Shown piece after piece: positions 357 through 45,643 of a stretch of DNA of 47,160 nt. The notes under the pieces were generated by a model. The model was not told the DNA's origin. It did no database searches and saw nothing but the letters and a program-made list of their open reading frames with translations. Within the stretch, counting starts at the first letter, position 1. Every line of letters begins with the position of its first letter. The translations under genes and the position numbers were made by a program. Source of the DNA: Catajapyx aquilonaris (taxonomy: Eukaryota); the NCBI GenBank assembly GCA_000934665.2, contig JYFJ02003041.1, positions 1 to 47,160 of the forward strand, in the 5' to 3' direction.

Positions 357-3300
357 GTGGGCCCTCGTTCCCCCCTCCACCACCCAGCCAAGGGAATGAG
401 GCAGGCTGAGAGTCGGGGGAATCAGAGCCCTCTTATCTCGAGCGCGCAGTCAGCGAGTTCTTCTGCGATTGTTGGGGAGGGGTAATAGGATGGATGGATG
501 GATGGAAGGGTGGATGGAAGGAATGGAAGGATGGATGGATGGGGGGCCCGGGCCAAAAGTCGATGTGCGGGTTGCGTCCAAAAAGCGCAGGCGCGACATG
601 AGCCAGGTCAGAGGTCGGGTTGGTGGGTGGGAGGGTTGGTGGGTGGATAGTTTGAGTGGGTGGGTGGCACATCAACAGGTGGCGTGTGCGCCCCCTTTTA
701 TATACCGGCCTAGTGGGGGGAGGGGGGGCAACAGGTTGCTCTGTTTCCAAAGTAGGCTTTTCCTCTCAACTCATTGCAGGCTGCGCCTTTGTCAAGTTCA
801 GCTCCCATCAGGAGGCGCAAGCGGCTATTAACAGTCTTCACGGGAGTCAAACGATGCCGGTGAGCTCCCATCTAGTCCTAGCTTATGTCCGAGACTCAAC
901 CATTTCCGAACCATGCTGCAGGGCGCCTCGTCGAGCCTGGTAGTCAAGTTCGCCGACACGGAGAAGGAACGACAGCTTCGGCGGATGCAGCAGATGGCCG
1001 GAAATATGGGCCTCCTCACCCCATTCGTGTTCAATCAGTTCGGAGCCTACGGAGCGTACGCGCAGGTGGACGTGGGTGCGGGGTCACCATCTCTTGGGGG
1101 GAAATTCTTTTCTCTTAATTGCCCGCGGGCCGCCGCACCGATGGTTGCCCCCTTCTTTCCCTGTCTACTCCGCAGTTCATGCAGCAGCAGGCAGCGCTCA
1201 TGGCGGCAGCAACGGCACACGGCACCTACATCAGTCCCATGGCAGCCCTGGCCACGCAGATACCGCACCCCTCGCTCAACGGGCTGGCCAACCCCGTCGT
1301 ACCGCCCACCTCGGGTGCGTATACCCATGCTCGTCTGCTGCACCCACCCAAATTATGCATGTTTTTGTGTCCTTGTTGCATCGAGGCATGCAGTGTTCTG
1401 TTTATTTTTGCGCATTTGGTTTTATGCATGGGGAATATGTGCTTCGACTAGACGTACTGTACAGTATTTCATAGTCCACAGGTGGGGGATGAGATTCGTA
1501 TAGGATCAGCGTAACCTGGATACACACCAATATGCAATATTTTGCGGATGATATGAAAACCATAGTAGAGGATAATGCCAGTTATGTCAATTAGTGCTTA
1601 TTAGAACCCGTTTGCTATAGTTTAGCAATTATAAATATGCAGGAATGTGAAGTTTCGGCATTTGACCACTTAAATGACGTGGTGTTTCAGTAATAACAAA
1701 TGATTACCTCAGCTCTGGATATTAAGAAACCATTCTTTCATTCGTTGTTTATACTATGGACGAGTGGATATGATTTCCTTTACATCAAACTCGTTGAGTA
1801 CTATATAATTATTATCTTTATTGTATTATTGTAATAATAACAATATCAATTTTAAATTTACATTTCAAGTCTGCAAATATAATATATGCACAATACTACT
1901 GTCACATGAAACGCATCACTCTATTGTTATATATTTTAATAGCATGCTATATTAACCTAAATGCAAAACTATAATTATTTATGGATTAATAAATTAGGGT
2001 AATATTACCGATACGCAAGGTGTATAGCTGGCTAACACACGAGGTAGCATAATTATCCTATCGCGGAACCAAATTCAGTCACAATCATTTTCTCTCCGAA
2101 TACGGTAAGCTTATATATTTTAACATCACTATATATTTACTCCGAATTTCAGTATTTATAATCAAAATTGATAACGCAGCAACGATTGGAGGAATTACAT
2201 CATTAACCTCATTTTTACAGGATATTGTATGCTCTCTGCAAAGGTACATTACAAATCACAGTAATTACTTTCATTGAAACTGTAATTTTGGAAACGGTGG
2301 AACTGTATATAATCCATCCATGAACACAGAAAAGCTTGTTTACAGCGAACCTTGGGCACCAGGTAACTAGCCCATTACGGAACTTTTATTAGTCCCGTCC
2401 AGTATTTTTAATCCCCGAATATTTCTATCGTAACGGAAATATGTTGAGCACAAAAAAATGCGGCCGGGAGCCACTCCGCTATACGCCTACTATAGACACG
2501 CCATATCACGGGCTTTACTATAGTATAGGACGTTCAGTCAAGGAATTTGTAGTTTATAGCATTGATGCCCCTGACTTCGCGGCAACAAGTGATGTAAACG
2601 AGGCTCATAGGTTAGCGGACTTCCAGGATGAGATTTGTCCTTGAGAATACTTCATCCTCTATCACTGGCGCGGCGCGGCGGGAAGTCAGCGCATTGCCGC
2701 TGCGCTGGCTGAGAAAAATGTAGATGCGAAATAGGAAACAAAACTAGATTGCACTAAAATTATTCAAACACTATTTAAAATAATTACTGTTAGTAAGATA
2801 TGTTTCTTTGTTCTGGGGGCTAAAATAATATTGTAGTTTCATGTGGAATAAAACGGAAAAACGTCATGACCAACTGCATGGTCGAGGCATTTGCATTACA
2901 TTGTTCGTGCATAGGGAATAAAATAGACACACTTGTAATTAACACAGCAAAAAAGGCGGCACAAATGGCAAAGACCAGGTTTGTGTGAACACATAGGAAA
3001 ATCTCGCATTTTATCGACGCGAATCATCGCATGTAAAATCACAATTCTGCAAATATCCCTAGAAAATCTCGCATGAACACAAATGTCCCGAAATTCAGTC
3101 TTTTATGCGAAAATAGCAACACTCCTGTATTGTGACTTATGGCGTCGAGTGTTCAGACGAATTTCAGCGTGAACTGGCAAAGAAGGCGGTGAAAATTGTG
3201 GCCAGGCCTTACACGAATGGGTGCGGGCACATTTGGAACAATTACGGGACTATTTCGCTCGAAAAGGCATGACGAGGTTCAAGGGGCACAGCAGCAGAAT

Positions 3301-5992: not shown

Positions 5993-6078
<86 letters not shown>

Positions 6079-7459
6079 AGACCTGTCGGGAAAAGGATAA
6101 GAGTATATGCATGCATCTATCCGCAAGTATCATTCCGTCAAATCCTCATTCAATTACCACTACTCCATCTGTTGGCTCACTGTAAAACAACCAACTGCAC
6201 TTGCTGCTTTTACAAGAACTAGATAGCGATTAGCCTAGATTAGCACATGTGTGAGAAAATATTTTGATGGTTCGTTGCATATTTTGGTGTCCAGGGGCTG
6301 GCTCGGCGCAACCAGTGAACGGCGCTCTGCCCAGCATGGCGTCACCCAGCGTTCCAGCCTTCAACATGGCGGCGGCGCAGACTCCAAATGGACAGGCGGC
6401 TGCGGCGGCTGCGTCGGACGCGGCGGCAGCGGCGGCGGTCTACGCCAACGGCATCCCGCAGAGCTACCCCGCGCGTGAGTCGACACCCGCATCTTCACAG
6501 CCGGGCCCAAAGTCTTTGGCGCCTCGACTTTCTTTTCGACAATCGCTAACTGCAGATTAATCAACGTCACTGCCTGCTGCTGGAATGCATGAACCGCTAA
6601 GGAGAAATTGCCTTGATTTACTAGAGACTTCGCGGCATGCCCTTCGATCTGGTCTGTACTAGTCGGGCTATTCATATGGGAATGAAAAAATCATCAAGTG
6701 AATGATGTCTGGGGCCCACTCGATGAGGGGTCTCGTAACCAGGGACCGCTCAATGAAAATTAGTAGGGGAATGTATTATGAGTACAATGATGGCCCGTCA
6801 ATCTTGTTCCCTTCAGTCGAGAGTCAGATAACGCAAAGTAATTTCCGGGATGATATGTATTTTCTGAGGTCGTTAGATATTTTGGATACATGTAAAAATT
6901 ATCTTTATGTAGGCTTTGAAAATCTAGGTCAATGCTTATGACACCTTCCTTGCTAAATCGTTACAGTACGTAACAGGTTCGCTTCCTTATAACCAATCTA
7001 ATGGGAAACTGACTATATCTTTAAAAATGACAAATGGAGATATAAAATAATATGCGAGGCTAGAAAATGCGCTAGTTTTAATTGTGGTTCTCGTTAGTTG
7101 CGAGAAATTATCAGCGTATGGAATAGGGCCTACGCGTGCGATATCATGTTATAGTTACTAATATGACAGAGCCGCAATATTTTGACTGCGCCAAACAAAA
7201 AAAGTGTATATCTTGTTAAAGTACCCGCAGAAGTAGTAGTGTCAAAGATCAATCGTTACAACGTTTTAATTGACGTGTCTACACCACTGAAGGATTACTC
7301 GCGGCTAGTAGATAAGGGTGACACTTTATCTTCCCTATCTTTGAAGAGCGCCACCAGTGCACGAAAGGTCTTAAAATGGTAACTGAACTTGGGGAGTTTA
7401 TAGCTTTCACGTTCAATGACTCAAATAATGTTATTTCCTTTTTGATTAGCGGCCTTTGA

Positions 7460-7527
<68 letters not shown>

Positions 7528-10500
7528 GTGAAGCTAGCTAGTGAACTTAGAAACACCGTAAGAATTACTGTACTGCAAATCAATCGTAACAATAGTAAAT
7601 GCAACAATGTCCAATGATATAAATCGTCGTCATACGAATTTAAAACACGATATAAAATTTTTATCGACAAATCTCACAAAAGTATCCTACAAGTTTTTTT
7701 TATTTATTATTTATTTTTTCAGTACCCCGTGCTAACCCTTTCGGGTTTATAGGGGGACAGTATCCTACAAGTAGTGTGTGTAAAGTAAGGTGGAGTTTCC
7801 GAGTCGATATCAACTGACAAGCCTGATAAAAGGTGTAGGGCGCGGTGTGGGCAGTCTTCAAATTCATCTGACCGATTATACGACAACAAAAAGACAGCTC
7901 TTCGATTGGGCACTAGAAAGTGGTCCTCAAACCGAATCAAAATGTCATCCACTTCATTTGATTCAATATAAAAAAACCGCGACATCCTTGAAGCAATAAA
8001 ACGAATAGTATCAGCTAGTTCATAATTTGTAGGCGACGCAGCTAAGGTCATCACGGTTCAATTTTCAAGCAGGCATATTTTTGACACCGCACAGATAACA
8101 TTTGACGAAACCCTTGCGATATCATCTGATCGATTTTTCCTGAGAAATATAGTCGGTTGTAGCGGATACTTGTTACATCTCATACAGTTCGCCTGTATTA
8201 TTCTGTACGCATGCCGAGAATAAAGATTGCAGAGGATTTTTTGTGCCCAAAACGATGCCGGAATGCAGGAGACGTGCCAGAAATTTAGCGCCTGAAAGGC
8301 GAGTGTACCGTACGACAAATAAGGTGCATAGGTCAGCTAACAGCCAGGATGAAAAATATAATATGCAGAGATATTTCCCGGGGGCCTGCCACTTGATGAG
8401 CTATTATAAATATGATAAGTGAGGCCATCTGATTATGCACAGAGAGTTTGGACTATTTAAATATTCATTGGTAAAATGGCCTTTATTATACTTTTATCAG
8501 GCGCATATGCTTCGAGGCGTCAACAACGCTGCGAGTTAATGATGGTGTTGACAAAAAAACGACCCAACCTACGTCCTCCGCTGCAGTGTTGATTAGCAAA
8601 CTTTAAAAGTAGCCGCATTATCCTGAATGTCCCAGGTGGCCCAAACTGTGGGAAAGGATAAAGTACAGGTACATTAAATCTGGCAGTAATGCAATTAGCA
8701 GCAAAAGCTTCCTCCCCTTTAGACCTACCAGTTGAGCGAAAAAAAAACACATGATTCATAAATAACCATTTTCATAGTTCCGTTAGCTCCTCGATATAGC
8801 ATCGCAGGTGCGCTCCATTATTGCTATGCGTAACCTTGAGTTGCTATACCGAGCAGCGCAATTGATTCAAAGGCGGTGGCCGTCCTCGGCGCAAATGTGC
8901 CGATCGAAACTTTTCTTGATGATGATAAGCCCAGTGACAAAATAAGGGAAGCCGGTACACCGCATTTGGGACTTACAATGGAAGGGATCAAAATTATCGC
9001 GCTGCACAAGGCGACGCTCCATTACGCAAATTAACTAGGGGCTTACTGCAATTAGAACATCTACTAGCTTTTGACCTGCCGTGGGAAGAGGGGAAAAAAG
9101 GGCAGGTTCCGTCAAATTTATTGGACATGTTATGGCGTCGTGAGACTCTGGGCGCATTATGGATCATTACGGATTCACGATTCTTCAAGTTTCTACATCG
9201 ACGGATATATGCACTTGAGTTCCTCCCATGAGAAAAATCGACCCGGACGATCTAAAAAACTTATGTTCGTTGATAGTTATTCCCCAAGTTTATAGGCGGG
9301 TCAGTTAACTTTCTATGCTCGTGTTTCGTGCCCTCTAATCGTTCAACAGGCTTGGTTCCGGGCAAGACCAGTACATTTAACCCATCTTGAAAGGCCGGCT
9401 AACGATGGATAGTTCCGACAATAGGCTATGCTTCTGCGTTATGGATGACCTGGCTCATGTATGAGAACAGTGTCTTGGGCCTGGCCCGGATTACAGCCGT
9501 GGCTCCAGGAGGAAACCGGGTCGAGGTGAATTGAAAGAGAAGAACGACAAGCAAGGGAGGAAAGGAGGGGGCTTGAGGCGATGAGAAATTACGCGCAGTA
9601 GGAGAGAAAATCCGAATTCCTCTAATGCAACTTCCAAGTTTCACCGTGACGACATGCATAGGTGAAGTAAAGGGCCTTCAAGTGAGGGCTATAGAAGGAG
9701 TAATGGGCCTTGGAGGCAGAAACACTTCACTTCTAGCAACATAAGCCAGCCCGTAAGAACGGCTCGCTTTACCAACTTCTCGGCGAATATTAATACGAGG
9801 GAAGTTTTATCCTTTCTGTTCTTTAAGTAGACCTGCTCTATTCATTCATGGTGCCAGCTTCACACGAATATTACGTTTACAATGGTTGACATTTGCCGTT
9901 ATTTATCTCGTAATTTTGAAATAACTTTGCCGAGTAGGAGGTCAAAGTGAGAAGACGCTTGCGGTGCACATAAAAGACAAGTGCAATTGATGAGAACTTG
10001 GACTGTTTCCAGCCATATCTTTATTACCCACTACATTTTATGAGTGCTGGAAATTATTTGGTTTAGCCTCACACAGCGCAGTTATACTCACTGAATTGGC
10101 AGTTTCAAGATGCCGTTTCATTTCCAGTGGTTTTCGCAGGATTCAAACTACTGCACAATAATCGTTCTCCGTTGCTATTAGCTGTTTGTCAATTGCACGT
10201 GGTTGAAGGGTGTGTAATAATCAACACGAGATAAAATGAAGAGATGCAAGGATGTGCAGCAGCAGGCCTGCCCGACAAGAAAGTCAGTCGGCAAAGACTT
10301 TGGAGTGTCCCGTGCCGTGGCCTTTAGGCCCCGCTGACCCGACCCGTCCATGCCTCGGGGCAGACGGGGCACCACCGCCTCCTCACGTAGACGCCCTCTT
10401 TACAGCACAGGCGCTGCCCAACGGCGAGGCAGCGCTTCAGCCCGCCGCAGCCTACCCGGGGATGCAGCCCTACCCGGGTGTGGGTACGTACCCATACTCA

Positions 10501-13500: not shown

Positions 13501-15438
13501 CCCATTTTTCTTTAAGGACGCATGGTCGAGCGTGATGTTCGCCTTTCTATTGGAAAGAAATTACGTGGAACGCAAAAAAAAGAGGATGAAATCAGACCCC
13601 CCACTTGAGTTTTTCACGGATCAAAATGCAGGCTGCATATTCCCCCAAATTATAGCCATGATGACGTGCGAATGTCGCAAGTGAATTTTCCGAGAAAGCG
13701 GGATTTTTTTGATGGTAAAGACAGCTCAAAGGGCTGAGCATGGCTTGATTCTGTAATGGTCTGGGTGTTTGTCCCCCCGGCCGGTGCTTCACTTTTTGGT
13801 CCGCCCCCGCTCGCTCGTCCACAGCACCCCCCCTCCCCCTGCTGGCCCCTGCCATCGCCTCGCCGCCGGCCCCTGCCAACAGGGAAGGTACAGTACTTGC
13901 TTGCCCTAACAGTACACCTCTTCTTACCTTTCACCTGGTTGCTGGCCCTACCTAATCCGCTTGTGCTTTTGCGATCTTATGGTCAATGTCAGCTGTGCAT
14001 CTTGTCCCACCTTTTGCCCTTTCTTATGTGTGTTGTGTGTTGTGTGTTGTGTGTGGGGTGGGGATAAGCATTGTGCACCTCTGCCTTTAGGTAGTAATTT
14101 CGCGCTGAGAATGGTGAGTCGTTGCAGGATTAACGATGCGGTTGAGTAGTAGCAATCATTAATGCTTCCTCAACCAATCACAATCGATTTTTGCGTCTCA
14201 TTAAACGTAATTTAAGCACTGCTAAAAATAACGTATCCTCGATCCAGTCGAGCAGTAATTTGGGTTCCTCATTCACTGCTTCGTCTTTCTTAGTTCTCCA
14301 GCTTCAGTTGATAATCGTATTAGGACAGTTGAAAGACATTCTTTCATGGCTCGTTGCAACTGCTGAGCCATCCCAGTGACCTTGTGTACGTCCAAGTATT
14401 ATGTAGTGTCGAATTATTACAGCCATCGCAACAACTGCCACCTTCGGATGAATAATTCAGTTGTTTTTGACAAAATAAGACATTCTCAATGCCAGTACTG
14501 CAATCGATCAGTAAGACCATACGGAGTGTACCAAAAGTATACAGTAACATACTTGTCTTGGTCCAAGGTTACACTCGTGTTTATGTTTTATTAGGATCGT
14601 CACGTCGCAAAAGTGATCGATAAATTTTTCAGCGGACTTTTGCTGCACTCCGTAGAACCCTATTGAGTGCCATCAATAGATTTTTTTTGTCAAAGTTCCA
14701 GCTACAAAAAATTCTATACTAAGCAGTATTGATTTGTTCGTCTGCTCATCCAAACCGAACGAACTGACACCGTAATTCTTATCGGATTCTCTCAAGTCAG
14801 TGTCTCCTTTTAGGATATTTCCCATGGTAAGAGAATTTTTACTTCAACCAGTACCTTGTAATGCCAGTGTTGCCTGTGCTCTCAAATGAATCATTCCCAC
14901 TCTCGTCGCGTACAACTTGTTGTGCCACGTTTCCTTTCCGATGCAAATAGTAATCGTTAAAAAGCAATCCATCTGGCTCAATCTCGAGCAAGTGCTGTAA
15001 CTTGTCATGATATTGATCTATTTCCGACTTGAAAGTCTTCACATCGCCTAACTTGTCAAGCGTAACCATTTCGAAATGACACTAGAAGCCCAGAGGAGCT
15101 CAGCAATGGGTTCCAGCCCGTACCCAATTCTTCTTTCTTTGTCCATGTTGTTTTCATCTTTCAAGGTTTGCCAGAGTTGCTTGGCTAGTGTCTCACCAAA
15201 ATGCAGGTGTCACGAAAGTCCTTGTGTTATAATGTACTGTATACAGTTACCTGCCCTCTAATATACTGGACTCTGAATCACGTGTGCACAAAGGCTTTTG
15301 TGATACCCTTACTCAAGGTGATCAAGCTAGTCCTTAGCAATATTTGTTTTGCTGTCTTTGTGTTAATCTGTCCTGCCATTTGTTCCCGGCTTAACAATAT
15401 GATGTGGGAGTGTGTGTGGGTGTGTGTGGGAGAGAGAG

Positions 15439-15499
<61 letters not shown>

Positions 15500-16622
15500 A
15501 ACCAGGAAAGTGTGAGCAACACAGAACCACTTTTCTCGGAATTCCCATATCTTTTTCGTCTAGGTTGCTCCATCTCCGGGCCTGAAGGCTGCAACCTCTT
15601 CATCTACCACTTGCCACAGGAGTTTGGCGACGCCGAGTTGATGCAGATGTTCTTGCCCTTCGGAAACGTCATTAGCTCCAAGGTGTTCATCGACAGGGCC
15701 ACCAACCAGAGCAAATGCTTTGGTACGTTTCTTCTTATTAAACTTTAGTCTTGGGGTGGTTTCTGTCTCAGGAAGAGTGACCTTTGGGCCTTACTAATGT
15801 TCTGACTTCGGACGTTACATAAACACCGGTTTTGAAAAGAAATGCAACCGCTCCAATTCCGTGATTAGGCCGGGAATGTTTACATAATTGGGATTGTATC
15901 CACGGTGGGGGACTCTCGACGGGAAATAAATAAGCCCATTTTTCAGTCGCTCATACCGGAACATGAATTACAGAGTGGATCAAGAACAGTGATAGGTCTC
16001 AGGATAGGAAATTTTATTGGAGTTGATCTTCCGGTAACTACTAAGGCTAAGTTCATCTGCCGGAAAGAAACAATCACATTACTTGGAAAATCGCCCAACT
16101 TTGATCCAACCTGACAAATCCAAAGTTAAGCGATCAATATAGGGTTACTGGGACATAAATTTTTACAACCAGAACTTTTGTGATCAACCCTTATGGCTTG
16201 GACTCAGTATCTCTGGTCCTTCCCAACCGACTAAAATCCCAAAACAGTAACTGGCGAGACCTGTCCGTGGTGTCAAACAGTCCCAGTACATCGACAGTCT
16301 ACAAACTCAATTCCACCTTCCCCTGATGGGACAGCCAACCGACTGATGAAGCGACACGAAAGCTTGAGAGGAAAAAAAAAAGTTCTGGACAACCTGAAGC
16401 TTCTTGTGGTCTCTGATGTGGGGATGGTTGGGGCAACAAGTTGTTCATCTGCTTGACTTTGGGGGCTGCATTTTTTTGTTCTTCTTCTGCGCAGGTTTCG
16501 TGAGCTTCGACAACCCGGCCAGCGCGCAGGCGGCCATCCAAGCCATGAACGGGTTCCAGATCGGCATGAAGCGGCTGAAGGTTCAGCTGAAGAGACCCAA
16601 AGATGCCAGCCGGCCATATTGA
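228..16622 (+). CDS. CELF4: CUGBP Elav-like family (CELF3-6 / bruno-3 type) RNA-binding protein, 5'-partial; join(228-356,780-859,922-1065,1176-1314,6295-6474,10406-10483,13825-13887,15564-15722,16495-16622)
   Basis: RRM2 ([23 protein letters not shown]...[54 protein letters not shown]) and RRM3 ([90 protein letters not shown]) match the CELF3-6 subfamily. All junctions are GT-AG and the phases join into one frame. RRM1 exons lie upstream of the window. Confidence 0.95.
487..541 (+). repeat. (GGAT/GGAA)n tetranucleotide repeat
   Basis: Direct reading. Confidence 0.8.
780..859 (+). CDS. CELF4: CELF coding exon (RRM2 RNP1)
   Basis: cattgcag|GC TGC GCC TTT GTC AAG ... ATG CCG|gtgagc. Confidence 0.93.
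922..1065 (+). CDS. CELF4: CELF coding exon (end of RRM2)
   Basis: ctgcag|GGC GCC TCG TCG AGC CTG ... GCG CAG|gtggac; follows a 62-nt intron. Confidence 0.92.
1176..1314 (+). CDS. CELF4: CELF coding exon (divergent linker)
   Basis: ccgcag|TTC ATG CAG CAG CAG ... ACC TCG G|gtgcgt; [12 protein letters not shown]...VVPPTSG is typical CELF3-6 linker. Confidence 0.9.
5058..5582. mobile_element. Degenerate MITE (Harbinger-like end ...TGGCCC)
   Basis: ATTCAGAAAC...GGAATATAAGGAC on the left versus GTCCTTATATCCC...GTTTCTGAATATGGCCC on the right; multiple GGAATA/TATTCC subrepeats. Confidence 0.45.
5776..6075 (+). mobile_element. tRNA-derived SINE with V-domain-like core and (ATT)n tail
   Basis: A-box-like GGTGGTGTAGTGG; core GCGTGGGTTTTCTCGGGGTTCTCCCGTTTCCTCCCACA resembles the V-SINE central domain; B box apparently deleted; related copy near 27 kb. 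Confidence 0.75.
5993..6075 (+). repeat. (ATT)n microsatellite (SINE tail)
   Basis: Direct reading; explains the poly-I and poly-L ORFs. Confidence 0.95.
6295..6474 (+). CDS. CELF4: CELF coding exon (divergent linker)
   Basis: gtccag|GG GCT GGC ... CCC GCG C|gtgagt; GC-rich, 180 nt, phase 1-1; ...QTPNGQ...[12 protein letters not shown]. Confidence 0.87.
7461..7527 (+). repeat. (CTA)n microsatellite
   Basis: Direct reading. Confidence 0.95.
10406..10483 (+). CDS. CELF4: CELF coding exon (divergent linker)
   Basis: tttacag|CA CAG GCG CTG CCC AAC ... GGT GTG G|gtacgt; 78 nt, phase 1-1; [25 protein letters not shown]. Confidence 0.83.
12860..13125 (-). pseudogene. Decayed LTR-retrotransposon integrase (rve) fragment
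   Basis: Frameshifted [12 protein letters not shown]...RVS / [15 protein letters not shown]...[13 protein letters not shown] resembles the integrase core pattern EAxPLxxxTA...GIxHxxSAPYHP. Confidence 0.45.
13825..13887 (+). CDS. CELF4: CELF coding exon (linker end, ...NREG); frame not listed in the ORF track
   Basis: gtccacag|CA CCC CCC CTC ... AAC AGG GAA G|gtacag; 63 nt, phase 1-1; [22 protein letters not shown] supplies the REG motif that precedes RRM3 in CELF proteins. Confidence 0.75.
15410..15496 (+). repeat. (GT)n followed by (GA)n microsatellite upstream of the RRM3 exon
   Basis: Direct reading. Confidence 0.9.
15564..15722 (+). CDS. CELF4: CELF coding exon (RRM3 first half)
   Basis: cgtctag|GT TGC TCC ATC TCC GGG CCT GAA ... 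TGC TTT G|gtacgt. Confidence 0.93.
15845..16400 (+). mobile_element. Possible Penelope-like relic (GIY-YIG remnant plus minimal hammerhead-like motif)
   Basis: GNVYIIG...[12 protein letters not shown]...[14 protein letters not shown] loosely fits Penelope endonuclease motifs; followed by CTGATGA-N8-GAAAGCTT at 16343-16365. Confidence 0.35.
16495..16622 (+). CDS. CELF4: CELF last coding exon (RRM3 second half, TGA at 16620-16622)
   Basis: tgcgcag|GT TTC GTG AGC ... CGG CCA TAT TGA; the exon continues to a CAG|gtgagt donor after 16634. Confidence 0.93.
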
Positions 16623-18790
16623 GGGTGGAGGCAGGTGAGTCATCACACAGAACCCTCATGGTACAACATGCTGGCTGCATGACACAGATTTTTAAAATGC
16701 AAAACTATAGCCATTGATTTTTAGTTATTACCAAATGGAACATAAGGGCATCTCATTTCACATCCATTTTGAATTCTGCCAGTACAGTAACTCATTTTAG
16801 TCGGGTGCGGTGTGCCGTGCGTACGCGGGAGCTGTAATTGAGTGTCGTGCCCTATTTTTCACTGTCAGGACTCTTCTGGCTCGGATACTGCACACGAGAG
16901 TTGATTTGGAACAAAGCGCTCTCAAATTGTTTCCTTATTGCAGGAGTTATAGTTGAAAAGCGTGGATATTGTTGTGCTAGAGCAGCAACGAGCAAATTAT
17001 TTACGCTCATCCAGATTGGTGAAATGAACTCTGAAACAGATGCCAAATTTTTTTTTGAACGGTGTTTGAAACGCTGCCAGGCGTTTATCAGAACTACAAT
17101 ACTCGGAGTATATCATGACACCACTAATGCAAAAATTCATCAGCCGCTTGCACTTTGTTCTCAAGTTAATCAATTACAAGTGGAAGCACGCAATATCTCG
17201 CTTAACCCCGGAATTTCACTCCGTTACTTCACTATACGAAACACAGTAAAATGGAATGACAAAAGTTATAAAATGTCGGGGTTCAGTTTGGCCATGTAGA
17301 ACTTGCAACAGTGGCTTCTGTACAGCAATAATGAGACATCAGATCCTAACTGCATGAAGAACGTGCTTACTGGATGATGGGTACATGACTGCAGATGCAT
17401 CTTTGCTGTCGTCCTTGAAGTCGCGAAAATATCACCGAAACTGTATAACACCCAACGGAATATAATATCACCGCAACAATTACGGATAACGTGGTTTCGC
17501 TCGGAGATGACGTGCACGCTTTGGGGACACTATCTGGGAGCCCGTTATTAACTTGACACCCAAGTGGGACTACTTGATACCATCGGAGCTAGGCTTGTAC
17601 CTATACCGTATTATATGCTGCTTCCCCGCCTACCCCGTTTTACCCAACTCTCCCCTACAATATTACTTACAAACTCAATCGGAAGGACGCATTTGGGATA
17701 ACAAGGTTTGCACCCACTCCAATTTACCGAACCTGATTTCAGAGGAGTTGGGAAATATACAATGGTAGACCGAGTTCTTTTATTCACAGCACCAGTTTTT
17801 CTACAGGGTTACAACAAGCCTTTTTTGCTCCAAAAGGACTCTTGCTGGGCGGTCAAGTTGATATGCTACCGATCGGGATCAGATATGTTTTCATTACGGG
17901 CTCTTGTGGATACCTGGGGTGCTCTAGAATCAAGGTTGCGATTTTAAAAAATATAAGCCTGTAGGGTCCCACACAAGAGCATTACAGTAGTTTTCCGACT
18001 CCGTTTTTAGTAGTCCCATACGGGTTGTATTCAGTTTCCTTTACCCATACACGTCATAGAACTTGCCAACGAGCAGTAAATGGTTCCATACGCATGCATA
18101 CGAGAAGTATACAGTGGAGCAGGCAGGGAAAGCTGAGGATTGTGTAGTTGGACATTAATGGTTCGAATACGAGTGTAGCGTCGCTCCAGTTCACATTTCT
18201 GTCATCACTGAATTTTAAAATAAAATTTAATGACGGAATTGTTAGACTATATGAACATTGCGATGTGTCTTTTGCTCACGACACGACGGTCAGCCTGGTG
18301 ATAACATGACATCAGTAATAAACTTAGGTTCAGAGAGGAGAGAAAATCTGTTACATAACTTTCCCCATAAGTATAATCTGCTTTCCGTGAAATGTATTTA
18401 GCGTGCCTTGCTCGAGCAGTTTCAATTTCTTTGAAAGCATGACGTCAGGATTGTTGGAGCACCGCACCCACTCGGACGTCGAAATTTCCGCCACCCATCT
18501 GATATGCTTTTTTATGAGCGTGGCACGTCATTAAAGCGACCCAATCTCTTCTCTTGTCTTACCGCGTGATGTAACCCCGCTGCGCTTAATTGGAAATTAT
18601 GGGAATGGCCTTAAGGGCAATCTGTAATTATTGTGTGTGTCTTTTTACCCGTCACGAAAGTTTTTTGATTACATCACGGTTAGTAAATGTTACGTATGTC
18701 AAGGCCAGCTTGTTTACGACGTGCGAGTCAGTGTGATTGTGTTATTTCTGGTTGATGTGAGATGGCTAATGAGTGCAACTGTTGTCACAG

Positions 18791-21155
18791 GCGGCGGCGG
18801 CCAGCGCAGCCTCCAACGGCGGCGATGGCGCTGGCGGCGTCGGAGACGTCGGCGGCGTCGCCTGTCCCCTCTTGATCCCATACACCCCTCAATACCCTCT
18901 CCCCACATACTCCCTCCCAGTCTCCTTCTCCCAAACCAAACAAAGCAACCCCTGTAGTGAAATCCCTTTAGCGCTTGTAGAGTAGGCGAGGCAGCAGCGG
19001 ACATGAATGACGGATCATAAAAAGAAAGAGGGGGAGGAGGAAGGAGAGATGAAGACGAAGAAGACGAAGAAGCTGACGACGAAGAGGAGTAAAGAAGCGG
19101 AAGCAGAAGAGGAAATCGTATTTATTATTGCCCAATCGGGACATGCGCGAGATGCTAATTAAGTAAGCAATATATAAGCGAGCGTTCAATTCTGGCCCTC
19201 CCCCCAGTAGCTGCGAATCAGGGGAGCGCTTGCCGCAACAATGCAGCCAGCAACAATGGAGCTTGAGAGTGGTGAGGGGGGAGAGGGAACGACGTTCTCC
19301 TTTCTTTGTTAGCATGTAGGAAAAATATGGCCCTCCACGGATGGTAGCCAGCAGCGTTACATTATCACTCTGTTAAAAAGGGCTGCTGACTGGCTTCCGT
19401 CACACGGGGCCCGACCTTTTTTCGCCTCTCTCGAGGGCCAGTGTACATAAAAACACACCTAACGATGACCGAAATGTCACCATAACCCTACCCCCCCCCC
19501 TCCAGTTATAACCCCTTAATTTATTTATTTATTGTTTATTTATTTAATTATTTATTTATGGGTTCCTCTGGACAATTTTTCGGGTACTGTAGAGACGACA
19601 AAGAACGGTTCCCTTTCTCCCACTCCGCCCATACAACATAAAGAAAAAGAAGAAAAAGAAAAATGGTAGCGATACATTTTTTTGTCGTAGGCCTGCCTTT
19701 GTTGGCCAGGTGAGATTGATCTAGTGTATAGTAGTGGCCCTTCCTCGGCCCCCTTTCGGGGCGGGCGATTATTCCCACCGCCACAAGTGCAGTGCGGGTG
19801 CCGCCGACAACTACTGTACGCCAGCGGCCAAGACAACACTAGCCTATATTCATATTCATATTAATTTATTTATTATGGAGAAAAAAAAAATAAGCAAAGG
19901 CAGGGCCGCACCGGGTGCCAAACGCGCCGTCATTACTTATTTATACCCCGCTATTTCTTATCAGTACTTAGAAGATGAGGAGCGAACGAGTACCTTAAAA
20001 AATCATTACTAAATAATAAAAAAACATACACAACACACATATACGAAGCATATATATAAATAATATATATATAAATATAAAGTATATATTATCTACGAGG
20101 CGGACGGCGCCGGCGCGAAGGAAAGGATCTTGGGAAAATTTTGGGGAGTTTTGGGGGTAGAACGTGAGAAAAGGCAGTGTGTCAAACGGGAAGGGGGGGA
20201 AAGGGGGGGGGGGGTGATTTTTTAAAAAATCTGCCATTACTAAGTGTAAATCCGCCCACACGAGCGATTTTGGGGCTTGGGTACAATGTTTTCCGAGTGC
20301 TTTAGTTATTTAATATTACGACAAGGGTGATTCTTTTACTAGGGTGGAGGGGGGGTGGACGGATGGTTGGTGGTGGGATGGTTAATGAGAAGGGGGATAG
20401 GGGGCAGGGGGGTGGGATGGTTGGGTAAGAAGCATTTTTGAGAAGGGGTGGGCCGTGCGCAGGCGCCGTGGGACCAAAGCTCGAGGGCAGCTGCACGCGC
20501 CCGACGCACGGCCAAACCTTCCGCCGGCGCTGCGTTTTTTTTTGGCGTTTCTACTTAGGAATATTTGGGGATAACCCCCCAAGTGGGGGGCGCATGGGTG
20601 GGGTGGGATTTCAAACTAAAAAAAAAATACAACCATTCAACAGGGCCCTGACGTCACCAGCCCACAAAGCATATCAGGGGGGGTTGGGAAGGGTGGGTGG
20701 GGGATGGGTGGACCCTACGGAGAGGGGAGTGGGGGAAGGGGGGATAAAATATATAGATTATATAATTATTTAAAACAAAATGGGGGGTGCCCCTGTGCCA
20801 AAGACCGACCTTGGCACCCTCCACCAGATTTTGCCAATCAACATCCACTCCCCTCTCCGGATCAGTCATCCATCGCTTTTTAGACACGTATCATTCTTGA
20901 TTTCATCTTTGTCCAAAAATCAGACCAGCTTTCTGCACTAATACGGACTTCTCGGAGGGCGAAATTCATTGTTCTAGCTTTTTTGAGACACTGGGGGAGG
21001 AAGGTGACGTCATGGCTCTGGTAACAGGCAGCGCACACGTGACTGAACGTACCGGTCCACGTGTGTGAGTGTTGTGGGGAGGGGAAGGGAAGCCAACCAA
21101 CAATAAAATACCGCAGCACAACAAATTGTCTGTCGGAAAGGAAACCATAAATAAA
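18791..21155 (+). other. Probable terminal (3' UTR) exon of the CELF gene
   Basis: Acceptor gttgtcacag| at 18790 is the best candidate partner for the donor at 16635. Downstream is low-complexity UTR-like sequence with a TGTACATA element (19442-19449), ATTTA repeats (~19519-19558), G-runs and AATAAA at 20015, 21102 and 21150. The 3' end is uncertain. Confidence 0.55.
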
Positions 21156-22928
21156 GAAAGCGAAAACCAAAGTCGAAAAGGGTGTGCTTCTTATTTTTGT
21201 GGCCCTTGATCCACAGGTGCACGCCATTCTCCTCGTCGCAGATGCCACAAAAAGGTAGGTTAATATCTCACCGAATCACATTTGTAGAAACAAGAGCAGA
21301 CCTGTGATTTTTTTTTAAAATTTATAAAGTTAGCTTGTATACCATCAGCACCAAGACACACATAATACATGTGACGTATGTGTAGCACTTTTCACATAAT
21401 AATTCTCCTCTAAAGATGTGTTCCCACGAATGAGCCATCGCACCGGTTCGTGACAATTATTGATGTTATTAGATTGTCAAAAAGTAATTTTAACGGCCTA
21501 CGTTAAACTTGCCCATTCTCTGACCGGGGCAAAAGAAAGCTGTTTTCTCAGATACGTAAAGCCATTATAACGCCCATAATAATTATGCAGATAACGTAAG
21601 CACGTTGCAATCTCAAATTCGTAAGAACATAGCTGGAATCGGATGTATGCCTGAAGGATAATCGCACAGATTATATCCTGATTTTCTTGACATTGTTAGG
21701 ACATAAAATGGTTGTTAAGGATAATTTTAAGCAGAATACCACACAGACGGCCATAATATTATTATAGCAGGAAAATCTTTTTAGGCTATTTTGCTCAGTC
21801 AGACCCCTGTACCATACGTGCAGCAGCGTTCTACGTTTCTGACAGTGAGGCTTCTCGCTATAATGAGTTGTTCCTTATGAAAGTGCAATCATTGATCAGG
21901 GCTCCAAGGAGGATATACTTTCAAGGTAGTCACTCACTAATCTTGTCAGACAAAAGCAGCATGCTTAGACTCAGTGCTGGTGCAAAGGTGGATTAAGGAA
22001 TATGCAGCACGATTTCTGAAGCATGTCTTGTCTGAGGAACCTTCAAAAAGAGCTCAAATCTGGACAAGAATGGTAGCGCTGTCAGTTTCGACGTCATTGT
22101 CCACCATCTTTGATCGTAAATTTGTGAACTCTCTTTTGTCACAACCCGACAGAGGCGCTTTTTTTTGAGCCGCCCAAAGCCGACCTATGTCCATTAGCGC
22201 TGACGTTCGAAGCAAGCTCCGTCCCCCCAAATCAATCCATCATTGAATATCGGTCGGAAATTTAGAATCCTCTCCATTGTGGGTCGTCAGACCTTTTATA
22301 CTGTAGTAGTGGTGGGTTTGTGCATTGTTAGAGTGCTGGGTAATCCTTATTATTATCGCTACTGATACACACCACAGTAAATCGTTAACATTCGTTAAAG
22401 TAGTTTGGATGAAGATACGCACATATGCTGTACATATAATTATATTAACTTGCATTGGACTACAACGTGCCCTTTCCCTGCATATAGCGAGTAGTCAGCT
22501 ATGATGAAGGAGATGAAAGTTACCTCAAATTATGAGGTAAAATATTAAACACATTCACTGCAATAAAATTAGCAATTAACCATCGCGCTCAATGTGAAAT
22601 ATACGAAATGTAATATTATGAAATATATCGTATCTTGAATGATCTAATTTCAAAATCAACAGCCTTCAGCTACTTAGTGGTTCTTAAAACTTTTTGCTGT
22701 CACACCTCCCTTGATAAGATCTCATGTCCCACACCTCTCATGTTTCCAGCCTTGAGGACGGAAGTTACTAATACTAGATCGTGACATAGTTCACTGTCAC
22801 TGGGCATTCTAGAATTTTGTGTACGTAAAATATGGATAAAACTCTTTCTAGTGAGGCAACGCACACCTCCCCTGAGGAGGCGTAACCCCACAGTTTAATA
22901 ACCCTGGAAGCTAATACAAGAAGCAATA

Positions 22929-23005
22929 GGGAGGCGGAGTGGTGCCGCGGTAACGTATGCGCCCACGGATGTTAAGGTCGCGGGTTCGATCCCAGCCCGG
23001 GGACC
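22929..23005 (+). mobile_element. tRNA-derived SINE head (or tRNA pseudogene)
   Basis: A-box-like TGGTGCCGCGG and B box GGTTCGATCCC at tRNA-like spacing; no clean cloverleaf. Confidence 0.55.
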
Positions 23006-24127
23006 CCCTTCATCTAGAGAAGAGTTAGGTCGTCTCTGGCTTCGTCTCGGGTGGATATTCATGTATTACTGAGACCAATCATACTGTAACATCTTCACTA
23101 AACTGGCAATCACTGTATGGTTTACCCTACACGAAAATTTACCAACGAGTTCAGTAAAAAGTCCAGCATATTTGTGGGGTGAAAACCCGAAAGGGAACAC
23201 TGGGTTCTAAGTAATGTGACGTACTGTAGGCTGTACTATACTTGTTGGAGCACGTGGTCTATCTCATCGTGATTATGCATGACGTATCCAAGATCCCAGC
23301 AGCATCCGCAATGCAAGTGTTTTTATGTGAGGATCCCCCTTATACGTATAAGTTATTAATGTTCCCTGAAACTACTTTAAATATTCGTCAGCCATCTCAT
23401 TAAAACATTCAATCATCATCAACTTTTCACTTTCAGTATTGGCATTGACTGTCATCAATCAATGCCAATACTGAAAATAAAAATGTTATGATTCAACGGA
23501 TGAAATACACCATATTTATTTTCACAGTAACTAATTGCTAATCACTTCTTAGTACACATTAGCGTTTGACGGGTAATTAGCAATCGCTACACTTTATCTC
23601 GGAACATCGCGTTCGCCAAACAATCCTCGCGTCCTCTATCCACTTCAGCTTTCAGGGACATCCCCTTAAGACATGTCGAATAATTCGATTCCGTGGGACG
23701 ACTATAACGGCTCTCCGATTCTTTGCCACCAACTCCAGAAAATGCCAGTGTTGTTCTCAAAGGCAGAACACGGTCACTTCCTTCCTCTCAGCATCCGCAA
23801 GCCTCATAAGAGAGACAATATAAGTGTTTCAAGCGGAACAATCCAGCATAAGCTTATAATTAAAACTCTGATAATAATGCTCAGCCTTGTCTCGATAATA
23901 CAGCCTGATCAAAAAGTCACACTACATTTTTTCTCCATATTAGTCTTAGTATTTATACACCGTGTAAATGAAATAAGTGCGCATTTTTTGAAGAAGGATA
24001 GAGTGACTCGAAAGAAACCTTTTTCGCCAATACACTCGGTGCCGTGGTTACCATAATATTGCTATGGTTACTAAGGGTATGACGTGTTTGTATATGACGC
24101 ATGACAAATCGTCGTTTTCTGACTTAA

Positions 24128-24811: not shown

Positions 24812-26087
24812 TTAACGATGCATCTGCTGATCTGCGGCACCAAGTGTATTGGCAAAAAATGTTTCTTTCCAGTCACTCTATCATTTCGCAAAAAATTAGC
24901 ACTTATTACTTCATTTACAAGGTGTCTATTGTTCTTGTTGCTTAGACATTTAACAAAATATGGACCTTCCTTACAAGGCGTAAAAAAACTTATGTGGATT
25001 CAGATATAGGCTGACTTACATGTAGTCACTGTTAACGATTTCACCTTGCAAAGCTGTCTCCTGGGAGATATGAGAATGTAAAAAATCGACAATGATGCTG
25101 TTCGCCCCAATTATCTTGCTACCTGACCCGAAAAAACCAGACTTGTGACAAACAAGAACATTTGTGAGAGGCATAGGTGAGAGGAGAATAACGGTAAACA
25201 ATAATAATTGTCATTATTGACAAATGTCTCGTTATTCTAGGAAGGGGCTGAGACATACCTAATGATGTTTTCTTGGCAAAAGCAGGCATATGAAACAATA
25301 TTGGAAGCCCCCCCCCCCCCCATTTTTTGTCCCTTAGCTTTACTTTTTTGTTACAGATCTGGTTTTGTCAGTCAGGTACTGATAATATTTGAAAATGTCT
25401 TCCAAATACCCATCACCTGGACTGTAATGAAACAGGGCAAATTGCAATGGTATTTCGGACATTAGCATACTTTGAAAAGTTTTAAAAAGTTAAGCACGTC
25501 TGCACGTGTGCAAATTATATTTCCAATGGTCCTAAATCATTTTTGTAGCAACCTGTTGATATACAGTACATGCTGTAGATTCAAAACTGTAGTAGTAAAG
25601 AAGTACCGGTATCGTTTAAAAAAAAGTCGACTAAATACGGAACCAGTTAGTGTACTTTACTAAAGACGGATGCAGTACAAGCACAGTACTTCTTGATGCG
25701 GGCGTTGGAAATACATTCATACATTCAGATACAGCAAGCTAGTGGAGACCACAGGTAGTTTCTTATGTGATCTCCGGTGATTTCTTATTATTTGCCTAGT
25801 AACAACTCCAGACATCCAGAGATTAAACTTATGCCTCCTTCCCCTGTTCCCCACCCCTAAATTTAAAAACCCTTCGCCGGATCAAAACCGTGATGTATTC
25901 CTGAGACCTGCCTGGGGGCGTGGGTGTTACCGCTGCCCCCCCCCCCCCCCCNNATGCTTCCAAGGAAATGGAAATCAAGCTTATGATAATTAGTTATGAT
26001 AACCAACAAAAGTAGTCTACTGTAATGGGCAAATGTTCAACTGACCACATGTTTCGTTGTATTATGATTTTGTTGCATTGCTATTAA

Positions 26088-35003: not shown

Positions 35004-35054
35004 TCACGTTGCAGGCAATTGTGGAAGTCCAAACTCATCCACTGGCACACCATC
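35004..35054 (-). CDS. CHMP5: CHMP5 exon 5 (stop)
   Basis: catacag|GAT GGT GTG CCA GTG GAT GAG TTT GGA ... ACG TGA. Confidence 0.9.
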
Positions 35055-38000
35055 CTGTATGAAATCAGAGGTTATATTAAACCAAGGTTCTGCTATATCA
35101 ACAAAAGTGATTACCTTGTTTGCGGGAACCTCTGTGCCAGGCTCCTTCGTGGGAGCTGATGGAGCTAAAACAGCATCATCCAAGTATGATGCGTCCTCAT
35201 CAAGGGCCATCTCATCTCCAAGTGCTTCTAGCTCAGCCTCCAGTTCACTCTCATCGACATCAGGCATGCCATAGCTACGACCCAGAGCTTCCTGCACTTC
35301 GTCAGCTGATTCCAATAGGTCAGCCAGATCATCTTGAACATCCTGCCACAAAACAATCCAATTGCATAAGCAATGAATTCTTGTACTGAGTGTTTCAGAA
35401 TTTAGCTCGCATTTATATTTATGAAGGTTTCTGGTCTTTGAATTTGGCTGTTACAGATGAGTCATTGAAGGAAGTCATTTTTAAAAATGCAACATATGTC
35501 GCCCTATGGCCACTTGTCAACAGCTAGCACTGGGTCAAAGGTTGGCTTTGGTGAAGCTGGCAATGAGGAAAAAAACAACAGCTGGCTCATGGACATGTGG
35601 CCGATGACAGGGCCAGGGTTGTAAATATAATTAAACCCCACCCGCGAAAAATTCCTTATGGCAGTAATGGGAGGGTTAATTGGCACATTATACATAATTG
35701 GGAGTACAGTGTACTACTACTACTACTACAGTACTACCAAAAATGTTGGTCACAATGAGAGTGTCCACAACCCTTTGTTAGAGCTGAACTACACAGAAAG
35801 GACAGACAGTGCTTCCTATCCTTCTTGCTTCTGCCATAAAAGATCTGTAACTACAAACCTCAATGTCATCAATGTTCACTTTCTTGAATTCCTTTTGCAT
35901 TTGCTTCACACCAGTCTTCATAGCTTGAACAGTGGCCTGAGTGTCCTTGAGTGTTTGACATGCAAAGTTAGCTTGTTCCATATTGAAAGACTGTTGGCGA
36001 AGATTGTCAGACTGTTGCTCGTACCTGGAAGGAAAATAAGAAATGTGCAGGTTCGTGAATTCCATTAAGTGACGCCTCCATTGACATTTCAACTTAATAA
36101 CTGTGGATGTTAATTCATTTTTCTCACACCACAGTACCAGCTTCTCTAATGCCCTTACCGAGAGATGTGCCATGTGGAAGAAAATGCAGCCGAGGGGTTG
36201 GATATTTTTATTTTGTTATTTATTTGTTACCCAGTTACAGGGTACGTTTTGGGGGACGGCTCTGGGTACACAAGCGAAATAAAAAATTAAGTTATAGGGT
36301 TTGCGTATTGGGGTTGGATATTCTGACGAAGCGGTATGATACTGACTGAAGATACCTCATGACCTATTTGGGGGATTCACCTTCTCACCTTATGAGATTC
36401 AACCTGGATTCACTTCATTGTCCAACCCTTCAGGAAAAGCATCTCTCTCCAGGCCAAGGCCTCAAGAAACCTTGTGCCATGGTGGAAATAGTGGACATCA
36501 AAAGTGCTAATGTTGAAATGCAGATGATTCTATGCAGCACTACACTTGCAACTCATATTTCCTTACATTCAACTGGGTGGGCAACTGTCACACAGTGGTG
36601 GGTCGAACCCGTTTTCGTGGACAAAAGTCTGAAACTCATTTGATCATCGTGAAATTCGGTATATTTACGATGTTGGAGGAGCACATGCCGATTTTAGTGG
36701 TTTGAGCCCAATATGGACAATTTCAAAAATTTACATACCACGTTTGATAAACACACCATCATAGGCACATATGGAAATTTTTGTTATGCCTCTGGAGAGT
36801 CTTTTAGGCTTTAACATAGCTTCTATACATTGCACTAGTTTGAAATTTTTTACGTCCAGCAATAAGACTGTAAAAAAAAAGAGGCTGAGGTTCGGGTTAC
36901 GTTTGCCAGCACTCGCGTCCGATTCCATGCAGCGTTGCCTTATTTTTCCTTCCAATACGGTGAAATTACCCATGAAAACATTTTGGATTTGAAGCTAATA
37001 ATATTATAGGCATCATTTAGCTGCACTATGGTCAAAAACAAAGTATTACAAAGTGCATAATTAGCAACAGCCCAATGACATGGCAGCCATCTTTGATATG
37101 CAGATAACTGCAATTAATATATTTTATGTCATAATTTCTATATTTCGCTGTTTACTTCCTCAATTGTAATGAATGGTCAGGAATTTCTTGACACCCATTG
37201 GGCCGATAGTGAACGACTATGAAACACGGATGTAACATTTCTGGACTTTGAATTTGGCGCGTTACAGACGATTCATTGGATGAAGTCATGAAAAATGTAA
37301 TAGATGTGGCCCTATGGCCACTTTTCAACAGCTAGCACTGGGTCAAAGGTTGGCTTTGGTGAAGCTGGCCATGAAAAAAAAAAAAGATGGCTGGCTCATC
37401 GACATGTGGCCAATGACAAGGCCAGGGTTGTAAATATAATTAATTAAACTCCACTTGCATGAAATTCCTTATGGTGGTAGATAAAGGGTTAACCCTCCCG
37501 TTACCGCCATATGGAATTTTGTGCGGGTGGGGTTAAATTATATTTACAACCCTGGCCTTGTTATTGGCCACATGTCGAGGAGCCAGCCGTCTTTTTTTTT
37601 CTCATGGCCAGCTTCACCAAAGCCAACCTTTGACCCAGTGCTAGCTGTTGACAAGTGGCCATAGGGCCACATCTCTTGCATTTTTTCATGACTTCCTCCA
37701 ATGAATCATCTGTAACGCGCCAAATTTAAAGTCCAGAAGTGTTACATCTGTGTTTCATAGTCGTTCACTATCGGCCCAATGAGTGTCAAGAAATTCCTGA
37801 CCATTCATTACAATTTAGGAAGTAAACCATGAAATTTAGAAATTAAGCCATTAAGTTAATTGCTGGAACCTATATCAAAGATGGCTGCCATGTAATTGCG
37901 CTTTTGCTAATTACGTACTTTGTTATGCCTTGTTCTTCACCATACGGCAACGAAGTGATGCCAATAATATATTATTATTAGCTTGAACTCCAAAACGTGT

Positions 38001-44742: not shown

Positions 44743-45643
44743 CTACCTATCCCCTCCAACAAAGTCATCCTTTGGCTTCTTCTCCTTCTTCGCCTCTTCA
44801 TTCCATTTCATAAAGTAGCTCTTTCCAAACTCATAAGAAGATATCATTATGGCACAGGCAGGTGCCACTTTCACCAATCTGGGTACCAGACCTGCAAAGA
44901 GCCCTCGAAATCCTCTGCCAGCATATATAGATCTGATGGAGTTCAAAACTGAAGGTGCCCGATTATGCTTTCCTACTGAGGAAGAACAGTTTTAGTAAGA
45001 GATGTAACTATCACACTAGTTGCTGGAAACAATTACCGTAAAATATTTCTTTGTTCCCCACTTCAATCTGGTGATGCGTCTTCACCACATCAAATGGGAG
45101 TGTGACTACAGCTGCTATGGAACCAGCTGTTGCACCAGCAACAAGAGAGAAACTCCAATGTGGCTCCACTTGCTTAAATGACTTCTTCATGCTTTCATAG
45201 GAGCACCAATACATTGCTGTAATGAAAATGCACTTATCAATTTGCCTCCTGAAATCCTTTGCACTGACAGTACCAGAGAAAGGAATATCTCTCATGAGTG
45301 TGGCACCCACACCTCTCCAGAGACCCAGCCATCCACGTTGCCTAACAAGTGCAGATAAACCTTCCCCCACCTCCGAGTACTGAAGCTGTTTAGCTTGCAT
45401 CCAGGTACGAAGTAGCTCTAGTGGTGAAAAAATTGTGGCAGCAGCAGTACGTGCTGTCACAGAAGCTGCCAGTGGGACCCAGAGTGGCATATCTAGAATT
45501 TTGGGTCCTGCCAACCATCGTCGCAGACGGTCGTAAGTTGTATAATACAGAACAGTAGCTGGCACGGCCATGGCCAGTGTAGGCGGAAGACCAGACCAAA
45601 GTGAAAAGAAGCCTTCTTGGCGGGAGATCTTCAAAAAGGCATC
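44743..45643 (-). CDS. SLC25A40: Mitochondrial carrier of the SLC25A39/40 (probable glutathione transporter) family, 5'-partial; complement(join(44743-44975,45037-45216,45274-45643))
   Basis: [38 protein letters not shown]...SPLELLRT...RDIPFSAMYW...TLPFDVVKT...[28 protein letters not shown]; carrier Px[D/E]xx[K/R] motifs; introns of 57 and 61 nt. No upstream exon was recognised, so they probably lie beyond the window. Confidence 0.93.

Follow-up and report, generated by a model that had tools for sequence, protein, structure and literature searches.

A 5' splice site 12 nucleotides past the stop codon of a Catajapyx aquilonaris CELF4/Bruno-3-type gene probably marks the conserved stop-proximal 3' untranslated region intron of the CELF family

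The 47,160-nucleotide (nt) contig JYFJ02003041.1 of Catajapyx aquilonaris (assembly GCA_000934665.2, read on the forward strand and referred to here as the window) starts inside an arthropod CELF4/Bruno-3-type gene and carries the 3' part of that gene on the plus strand. Our analysis indicates that the gene probably ends in an ordinary CELF4/Bruno-3 stop codon, that this stop is followed by the conserved stop-proximal 3' untranslated region (3'UTR) intron of the family, and that a reading frame lying further downstream is open by chance. The original prediction was that the TGA stop is read through and that a 64-codon extension is joined to the coding region across a post-stop intron. The intron part of that proposal stood, because the donor is conserved in the family and the intron is present in vertebrate annotation, whereas the extension part gained no support, given a weak acceptor, a frame that chance can produce and the lack of a detected coding signal. 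The positions on which the prediction was built were all confirmed, namely the TGA at 16620-16622, the 12 nt that follow, gtgagt at 16635-16640, tcacag ending at 18790, 64 sense codons and the TAG at 18983-18985.

The identity of the gene was established by comparison with decapod and stomatopod CELF4 proteins, which gave eight exon matches on the window by tblastn (Table 1). Pfam RRM_1 matches were detected in the RRM2 exon (224-358) and in the two halves of RRM3 (15566-15721 and 16497-16619). The exon encoding the first half of RRM3 terminates in a phase-1 donor, ttg/gtacgt, and the last coding exon is preceded by the acceptor ttcttcttctgcgcag, with 17 pyrimidines in 20 positions. For a 48-residue exon of the gene, 5142 candidates yielded 5067 relatives at E<=1e-5; the best named ones were arthropods, among them decapod crustaceans, mites and ticks that are 96-98% identical. 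The closest protein similarity is to malacostracan crustaceans, and a protein motif of the window was common to the malacostracan proteins compared. The C-terminal motif KRLKVQLK was present in 72 of the 120 relatives listed, and all 72 of these end in ...RPY with nothing after it; therefore, the TGA at 16620-16622 was taken to be the canonical stop codon. The gene encodes RRM domains, the third of them at the very C terminus, and its protein ends in RPY, which places it in the CELF3-6/Bruno-3 subgroup of the CELF/Bruno family.

Immediately after the stop codon and 12 further bases (GGGTGGAGGCAG), the window carries the sequence CAG/GTGAGT, which agrees with the 5' splice site consensus at seven of seven positions. 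Perfect matches to MAG/GTRAGT (7/7) occur at only two sites on the plus strand of the 47,160-nt window, 16635 and 26668, and the alignment of the window to L020, one of the metagenome relatives described below, extends through the 12 bases between stop and donor. From its sequence and setting, the donor at 16635 appears to be more than a chance match and is very probably real. We define a stop-codon-proximal 3'UTR intron as one that starts less than 50 nt after the stop. The gene conforms to this definition, with a consensus 5' splice site 12 nt after the TGA, and the position is kept in orthologues and paralogues, both in genomic relatives and in the annotation of vertebrate CELF1-6. We propose that the GT at 16635 would act as the 5' splice site of this conserved intron of the CELF family; because the splice site would then belong to a 3'UTR intron, the last coding exon would be an internal exon, and the remaining 3'UTR would lie in one or more downstream exons. 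Splicing of the post-stop intron in this species is inferred, as is the position of its 3' end.

The conservation of the post-stop donor was examined in metagenome contigs searched with the last-exon peptide. The search matched 594 stretches, of which 265 encode a relative, and the best 80 were taken forward. All but one of the 80 loci were scored (L073 was dropped because of a regular-expression mismatch), and the 79 were collapsed to 54 groups by a criterion of 75% identity across the 60 bases that follow the stop. Loci in which the RRM3 halves are contiguous in frame were classed as complementary DNA (cDNA) or fused, and loci with an intron before the last exon as genomic; L020 was reassigned to the genomic class because, despite its fused RRM3 halves, its open reading frame (ORF) is interrupted 127 codons upstream, where an acceptor-like site lies. 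A donor-like site (at least 5 of 7 matches) within 60 nt after the stop was observed in 19/30 genomic groups but in only 2/24 cDNA groups (Fisher p 3e-5; rank test p 2e-7), against a background rate of 11% in 1854 windows from the same loci (binomial p 1e-11), although these p-values are optimistic because the groups are phylogenetically non-independent. With L020 kept as a cDNA, the counts were 18/29 genomic and 3/25 cDNA groups (p 1.6e-4). This contrast between genomic and cDNA groups is what a spliced-out intron predicts.

Comparison of individual loci pointed in the same direction. The post-stop motif CAAGGCTTA(A)CTG is common to the cDNA L003 and the genomic loci L015, L025 and L028, and the cDNA diverges from the three genomic loci exactly at their GT. 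A 3'UTR element located at +308 in L003 was found at +2166 in L025 and at +4433 in L028. Alignment did not yield an exact acceptor in L025 or L028, and blastn of cDNA 3'UTRs against the genomic loci returned short elements only. Similarly, blastn of window positions 16623-47160 against the post-stop DNA of the 80 loci, which looked for a downstream exon by similarity, gave nothing significant. Taken together, the comparisons support a 5' splice site, placed between a few and ~57 nt past the stop, as a conserved feature of the CELF gene family.

In the genomic groups whose donor is strong (18 groups), stop and donor are 5 to 57 nt apart. All three phases were represented (12 groups in phase 2, 4 in phase 0 and 2 in phase 1), and four groups carried an in-frame stop before the donor. 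The distance was congruent to 2 mod 3 in 12 of the 18 groups (5, 8, 14, 14, 14, 17, 20, 26, 26, 41, 44 and 56 nt). Coding constraint was considered as the cause of this excess and was set aside, since the groups are related and relatives that can be aligned differ in their distances by numbers that are not multiples of 3 (25, 28 and 20 nt in one set; 14, 19 and 26 nt in another); we therefore attribute the excess to the kinship of the groups. The occurrence of all three phases, and of such differences between related loci, argues against a frame maintained across the junction, as an extension joined through this intron would have it.

A different possibility is that the GTGAGT is unused, that the 3'UTR runs unspliced from 16623 to a poly(A) signal, and that the match to the donor consensus is coincidental. 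Two AATAAA hexamers, at 18219 and 18317, lie inside the putative intron 16635-18790 and could serve as such a signal, and the two cDNA groups that retain a donor-like site after the stop are consistent with this possibility. However, the perfect 9-mer 12 nt past the stop is one of only two on the plus strand, and its position is shared with most genomic groups and with the vertebrate genes, and we therefore regard an unused donor as unlikely. The other perfect plus-strand donor, at 26668, is an observation apart; no exon was identified there.

An exon junction complex (EJC) sits approximately 24 nt upstream of a junction. In the gene studied here, an EJC deposited at the post-stop junction would cover the final codons of the ORF and be cleared from them by the terminating ribosome. 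Because the complex would be removed in this way, established knowledge leads us to expect no EJC-type nonsense-mediated decay (NMD) of the spliced transcript, as the original prediction had also supposed. Introns in this position are known from vertebrate CELF genes. Supplement file 3 of Gangras et al. 2020 (PMC7310861) gives stop-to-intron distances in the 3'UTR of 10 nt for human CELF3, 28 nt for CELF6, 40 nt for CELF5 and 44 nt for CELF4, of 9 nt for mouse Celf3 and 44 nt for mouse Celf4, and of 44, 38 and 70 nt for zebrafish celf1, celf2 and celf4, respectively. The preprint version of that study counts 167 genes in which a proximal 3'UTR intron is conserved. RNA-binding and neuronal genes are enriched among them, and CELF1 is one of those named; some proximal introns, mainly those at least 36 nt from the stop, are stated to trigger EJC-dependent NMD in vertebrates. 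EJC-independent NMD has been described as common in insects (PMC13278127). The arthropod gene resembles its vertebrate counterparts in family and in place, in that the intron starts a few tens of nucleotides or less past the stop of the ...RPY exon, at 12 nt in the window. It differs in that the arthropod gene is known here from its sequence and in that EJC-dependent NMD is unlikely at 12 nt and in an arthropod.

The original prediction went further, holding that the UGA at 16620 is read through or recoded, that 16634 is spliced to 18791 in phase 0 and that a 69-residue disordered tail is thereby added after RRM3, with splicing deciding whether the tail can be made. The acceptor on which this model depends, tcacag ending at 18790, had been described as the best available. 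Analysis of its pyrimidine tract showed 9 pyrimidines in the 20 positions from -23 to -4, compared with 12 to 17 in six real acceptors of the same gene. Between 16700 and 24000, 67% of the 431 AG sites have at least 9/20 pyrimidines, and 33 YAG sites have at least 14/20. In favor of 18791, a CTAAT branch-point-like motif is located ~24 nt upstream of the AG at 18790, and the GC content jumps at this position. Nevertheless, better sites are available. The acceptor tttttcactgtcag at 16869 (15/20) would give a 234-nt intron and 11 in-phase codons, and that at 18921 (17/20), which has the strongest pyrimidine tract within 2.3 kb of the donor, would give 16 in-phase codons. The C/T-rich tract just upstream of 18921, which the original prediction had translated as PLLIPYTPQYPLPTYSLP, may be the pyrimidine tract of that site.

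The predicted extension peptide would span the junction GWRQ/AAAAS and include LLIPYTPQYPLPTYSLPVSFSQTK. The frame exists as described, and it was found to be neither longer than expected by chance nor specific to frame 0. Dinucleotide-preserving shuffles opened at least 64 codons in 11.9% of 5000 trials for the interval 18791-19090 and in 16.8% for the 195 nt themselves, and the resulting P of 0.12-0.17 precedes any correction for the choice among 431 AG sites, of which 25 (16700-24000) give an in-phase frame of at least 64 codons. Moreover, four of the six reading frames are free of stops over 18791-18957. A GC3-rich first part had been noted, but GC content at the first, second and third codon positions was flat (0.64/0.58/0.67 over the whole frame, 0.84/0.76/0.80 in the GCG block and 0.51/0.46/0.59 in the remainder), whereas the GC3 of real exons of the gene is 0.76-0.85. 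The supposed likeness to the CELF linker exons did not hold either, as the best BLASTP E values were 0.22, to a decapod CELF4, and 18, to the window's own linker frame. The extension peptide had no match at E<=1e-3 among 1,835,955,588 representative proteins and matched no Pfam family. On the opposite strand, an antisense ORF at 18717-19121 (135 residues) had no match among 1101 candidates, which covered the length range of 74-237 residues only. We conclude that 18791-18985 is most likely non-coding 3'UTR or intron sequence. In our interpretation, the 64-codon frame would be open by chance, in a low-complexity stretch poor in stops that consists of a GCG/GGC repeat and then a C/T tract, and would involve no recoding.

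Downstream of the candidate exon, purine-rich low-complexity blocks were observed at 19000-19100 and 20100-20800, with GAA/GAG repeats, a K/E-rich frame and a GC skew of up to +0.79. These blocks are possibly 3'UTR elements.

The sequence context of the stop codon was also considered. The stop is UGA-G, as the original prediction acknowledged, rather than the leaky UGA-C. The two closest relatives by nucleotide identity do not keep the frame open, with in-frame stops after 7 codons in L024 (cDNA, TGA-G) and after 8 codons in L020 (TAA), and the TAA of L020 precedes that locus's own donor at +40. In 21 loci, mostly cDNAs, the in-frame length past the stop was 0-78 codons and mostly short. Adenosine-to-inosine editing of the TGA had been raised as a point to check; among the 25 listed of 26 pairs of inverted repeats of at least 12 nt between 16560 and 18800, none touches 16600-16640.

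Several observations weigh against reading the TGA as an ordinary terminator. If 16634 is spliced to 18791, the 100-nt segment that directly follows the stop has a predicted folding energy of -59.2 kcal/mol, with z = -2.2 relative to shuffled sequences; this result depends on the putative 16634-18791 junction, and the unspliced post-stop 100 nt gave z of +0.6. In 25 of the 54 family groups the stop is followed by C, compared with a background of 20.6% (binomial p 2e-5, for groups that are phylogenetically non-independent), and TGA-C occurs in 14 of the 27 TGA groups, which are subject to the same non-independence. These counts hint that leaky stop contexts are common in some lineages of the CELF family, though the window itself has TGA-G. 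Furthermore, a preprint (bioRxiv 10.64898/2026.07.13.738141) reports that Bru3, the Drosophila orthologue, is read through in neurons with an efficiency of 0.178, that the extended form localizes to cytoplasmic granules in a reporter, that stable post-stop structure is linked to read-through and that UGA-C is enriched at read-through sites. The same source describes read-through extensions as lineage restricted, with 82 of 87 detectable only within Diptera. Because extensions of this kind are usually lineage restricted, the lack of homologues for the predicted peptide is weak evidence.

The parallel with Drosophila Bru3, as that preprint presents it, is that both proteins are orthologous neuronal RNA-binding proteins, that the tail would follow RRM3 and that extensions of this class are disordered and lineage restricted. 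The two differ in that the window has a UGA-G context and is known from its DNA, whereas the fly sites are enriched for UGA-C. In the main text of the preprint the word "intron" does not occur, and a search of 12 supplementary files of the FlyBase 2015 paper, file 1 not among them, gave no bru-3. The combination of read-through with splicing is itself not without precedent. Read-through extensions with splice junctions are tabulated by Dunn et al. 2013 (PMC3840789), and a rule for exon breaks in second ORFs is given by Jungreis 2016 (PMC5100048), so that these catalogues, in the portions cited here, already provide for an extension across a 3'UTR junction. However, the cases described in them have ribosome footprints or PhyloCSF signal between the stop and the junction, and here that segment amounts to four codons.

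In weighing these observations, we consider a lineage-specific read-through extension of any form to be decidedly unlikely. The specific model with the 69-residue tail has in its favor the existence of the frame, the documented read-through of fly Bru3, the tabulated junction-crossing extensions, the stable fold that would form if the junction were used and the CTAAT ahead of the AG. Against it stand an acceptor tract weaker than those of the six real acceptors and of the 33 other YAG sites nearby, an open frame within chance, flat GC content across codon positions, the UGA-G context, a peptide unmatched in the protein set searched, early in-frame stops in L024 and L020, and a family donor that lies 5-57 nt from the stop in every phase. 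We therefore judge this model to be extremely improbable. Read-through might instead act on another form of the mRNA and add a short, probably neutral tail. Retention of the intron would give the computed 19-codon tail GWRQVSHHTEPSWYNMLAA, and with alternative acceptors the tail is four codons plus 11 (16869), 16 (18921), 33 (19211) or 45 (19313). The general prior for arthropod neuronal RNA-binding proteins speaks for such an event, but the UGA-G context speaks against it, and we regard it as very improbable. Finally, low-rate UGA read-through might occur as in Drosophila Bru3, with the tail encoded across the phase-0 junction of the ancient intron and with the choice of 3' splice site, or retention of the intron, selecting among C-terminal tails. 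We hold this to be very unlikely; were it true, a 69-residue disordered tail, for example, could redirect the RNA-binding protein to cytoplasmic granules. The interpretation that we prefer is an ordinary stop followed by the conserved 3'UTR intron.

Table 1. Features of the CELF4/Bruno-3-type gene and its post-stop region, in window coordinates
Feature	Position	Strand	Evidence or remark
Exon matches by tblastn	~224-358, 779-865, 922-1074, 1218-1316, 6294-6473, ~10357-10494, 15563-15724, 16488-16619	+	
Penultimate coding exon, first half of RRM3 (...NQSKCFG)	15564..15723	+	tblastn to decapod CELF4, 93-100% identity; RRM_1 E 5e-6
Last coding exon, coding part, second half of RRM3	16495..16619	+	RRM_1 E 7e-6; tblastn
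Canonical TGA stop codon, next base G	16620..16622	+	sequence
Exonic 3'UTR bases between stop and putative donor, 12 nt, GGGTGGAGGCAG	16623..16634	+	sequence
Very probable 5' splice site CAG/GTGAGT of the stop-codon-proximal 3'UTR intron	16635..16640	+	7-of-7 consensus
Putative intron body, if acceptor 18791 is used	16641..18790	+	conditional on that acceptor; whole intron 16635-18790, 2156 nt
AG of the other strong candidate acceptor tttttcactgtcag, site 16869	16867..16868	+	15/20 pyrimidines; 234-nt intron; 11 in-phase codons
AG of the originally predicted acceptor tcacag	18789..18790	+	weak pyrimidine tract, 9/20 at -23..-4
64-codon open frame plus TAG (AAAASAAS...PLALVE)	18791..18985	+	GCG/GGC-rich block 18791-18865, then C/T-rich block
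C/T-rich tract, 55 nt, ending cccag; possible polypyrimidine tract for acceptor 18921	18866..18920	+	17/20 pyrimidines; 16 in-phase codons

Other features were observed in the window. At the end of the RRM2 exon, ...ATGCCG/GTGAGC (window 865-922), decapod isoforms occur with or without a short "VS.." insert (MPVSHTGASSS vs MPGASSS), and this isoform difference suggests the use of alternative 5' splice sites or of a micro-exon. The CELF introns contain perfect or near-perfect microsatellites at 5993-6075 (ATT)27, 7460-7527 (ACT)22 and 15430-15496 (GA)33, the last of which lies ~70 nt upstream of the acceptor of the exon encoding the first half of RRM3. On the minus strand, a Snf7-family (CHMP-like ESCRT-III) gene was found in two exons at 35007-35450 and 35781-36215 (Pfam Snf7 E 2e-12 and 1e-14), and an exon of a mitochondrial carrier gene at 45014-45658 (Pfam Mito_carr E 3.5e-35). 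The window includes three N bases, at 25952-25953 and 29137.

If read-through were true, an ancient UTR intron would be linked to the recoding reported for fly Bru3, a link that no finding here favors. The significance of the analysis is mainly one of annotation. In the arthropod CELF4/Bruno-3 gene, the last coding exon would be internal and a 3'UTR intron would follow almost at once, and gene models in which the 3'UTR runs straight on would be wrong. To judge from the sequences compared, many sequence-diverse invertebrate relatives share the stop-proximal 3'UTR intron that has been described in vertebrate CELF genes. Because it is present in vertebrates and in these diverse relatives, the proximal intron appears to be ancient in this neuronal RNA-binding protein family and to have been retained, and the retention of such introns usually signals a regulatory role.

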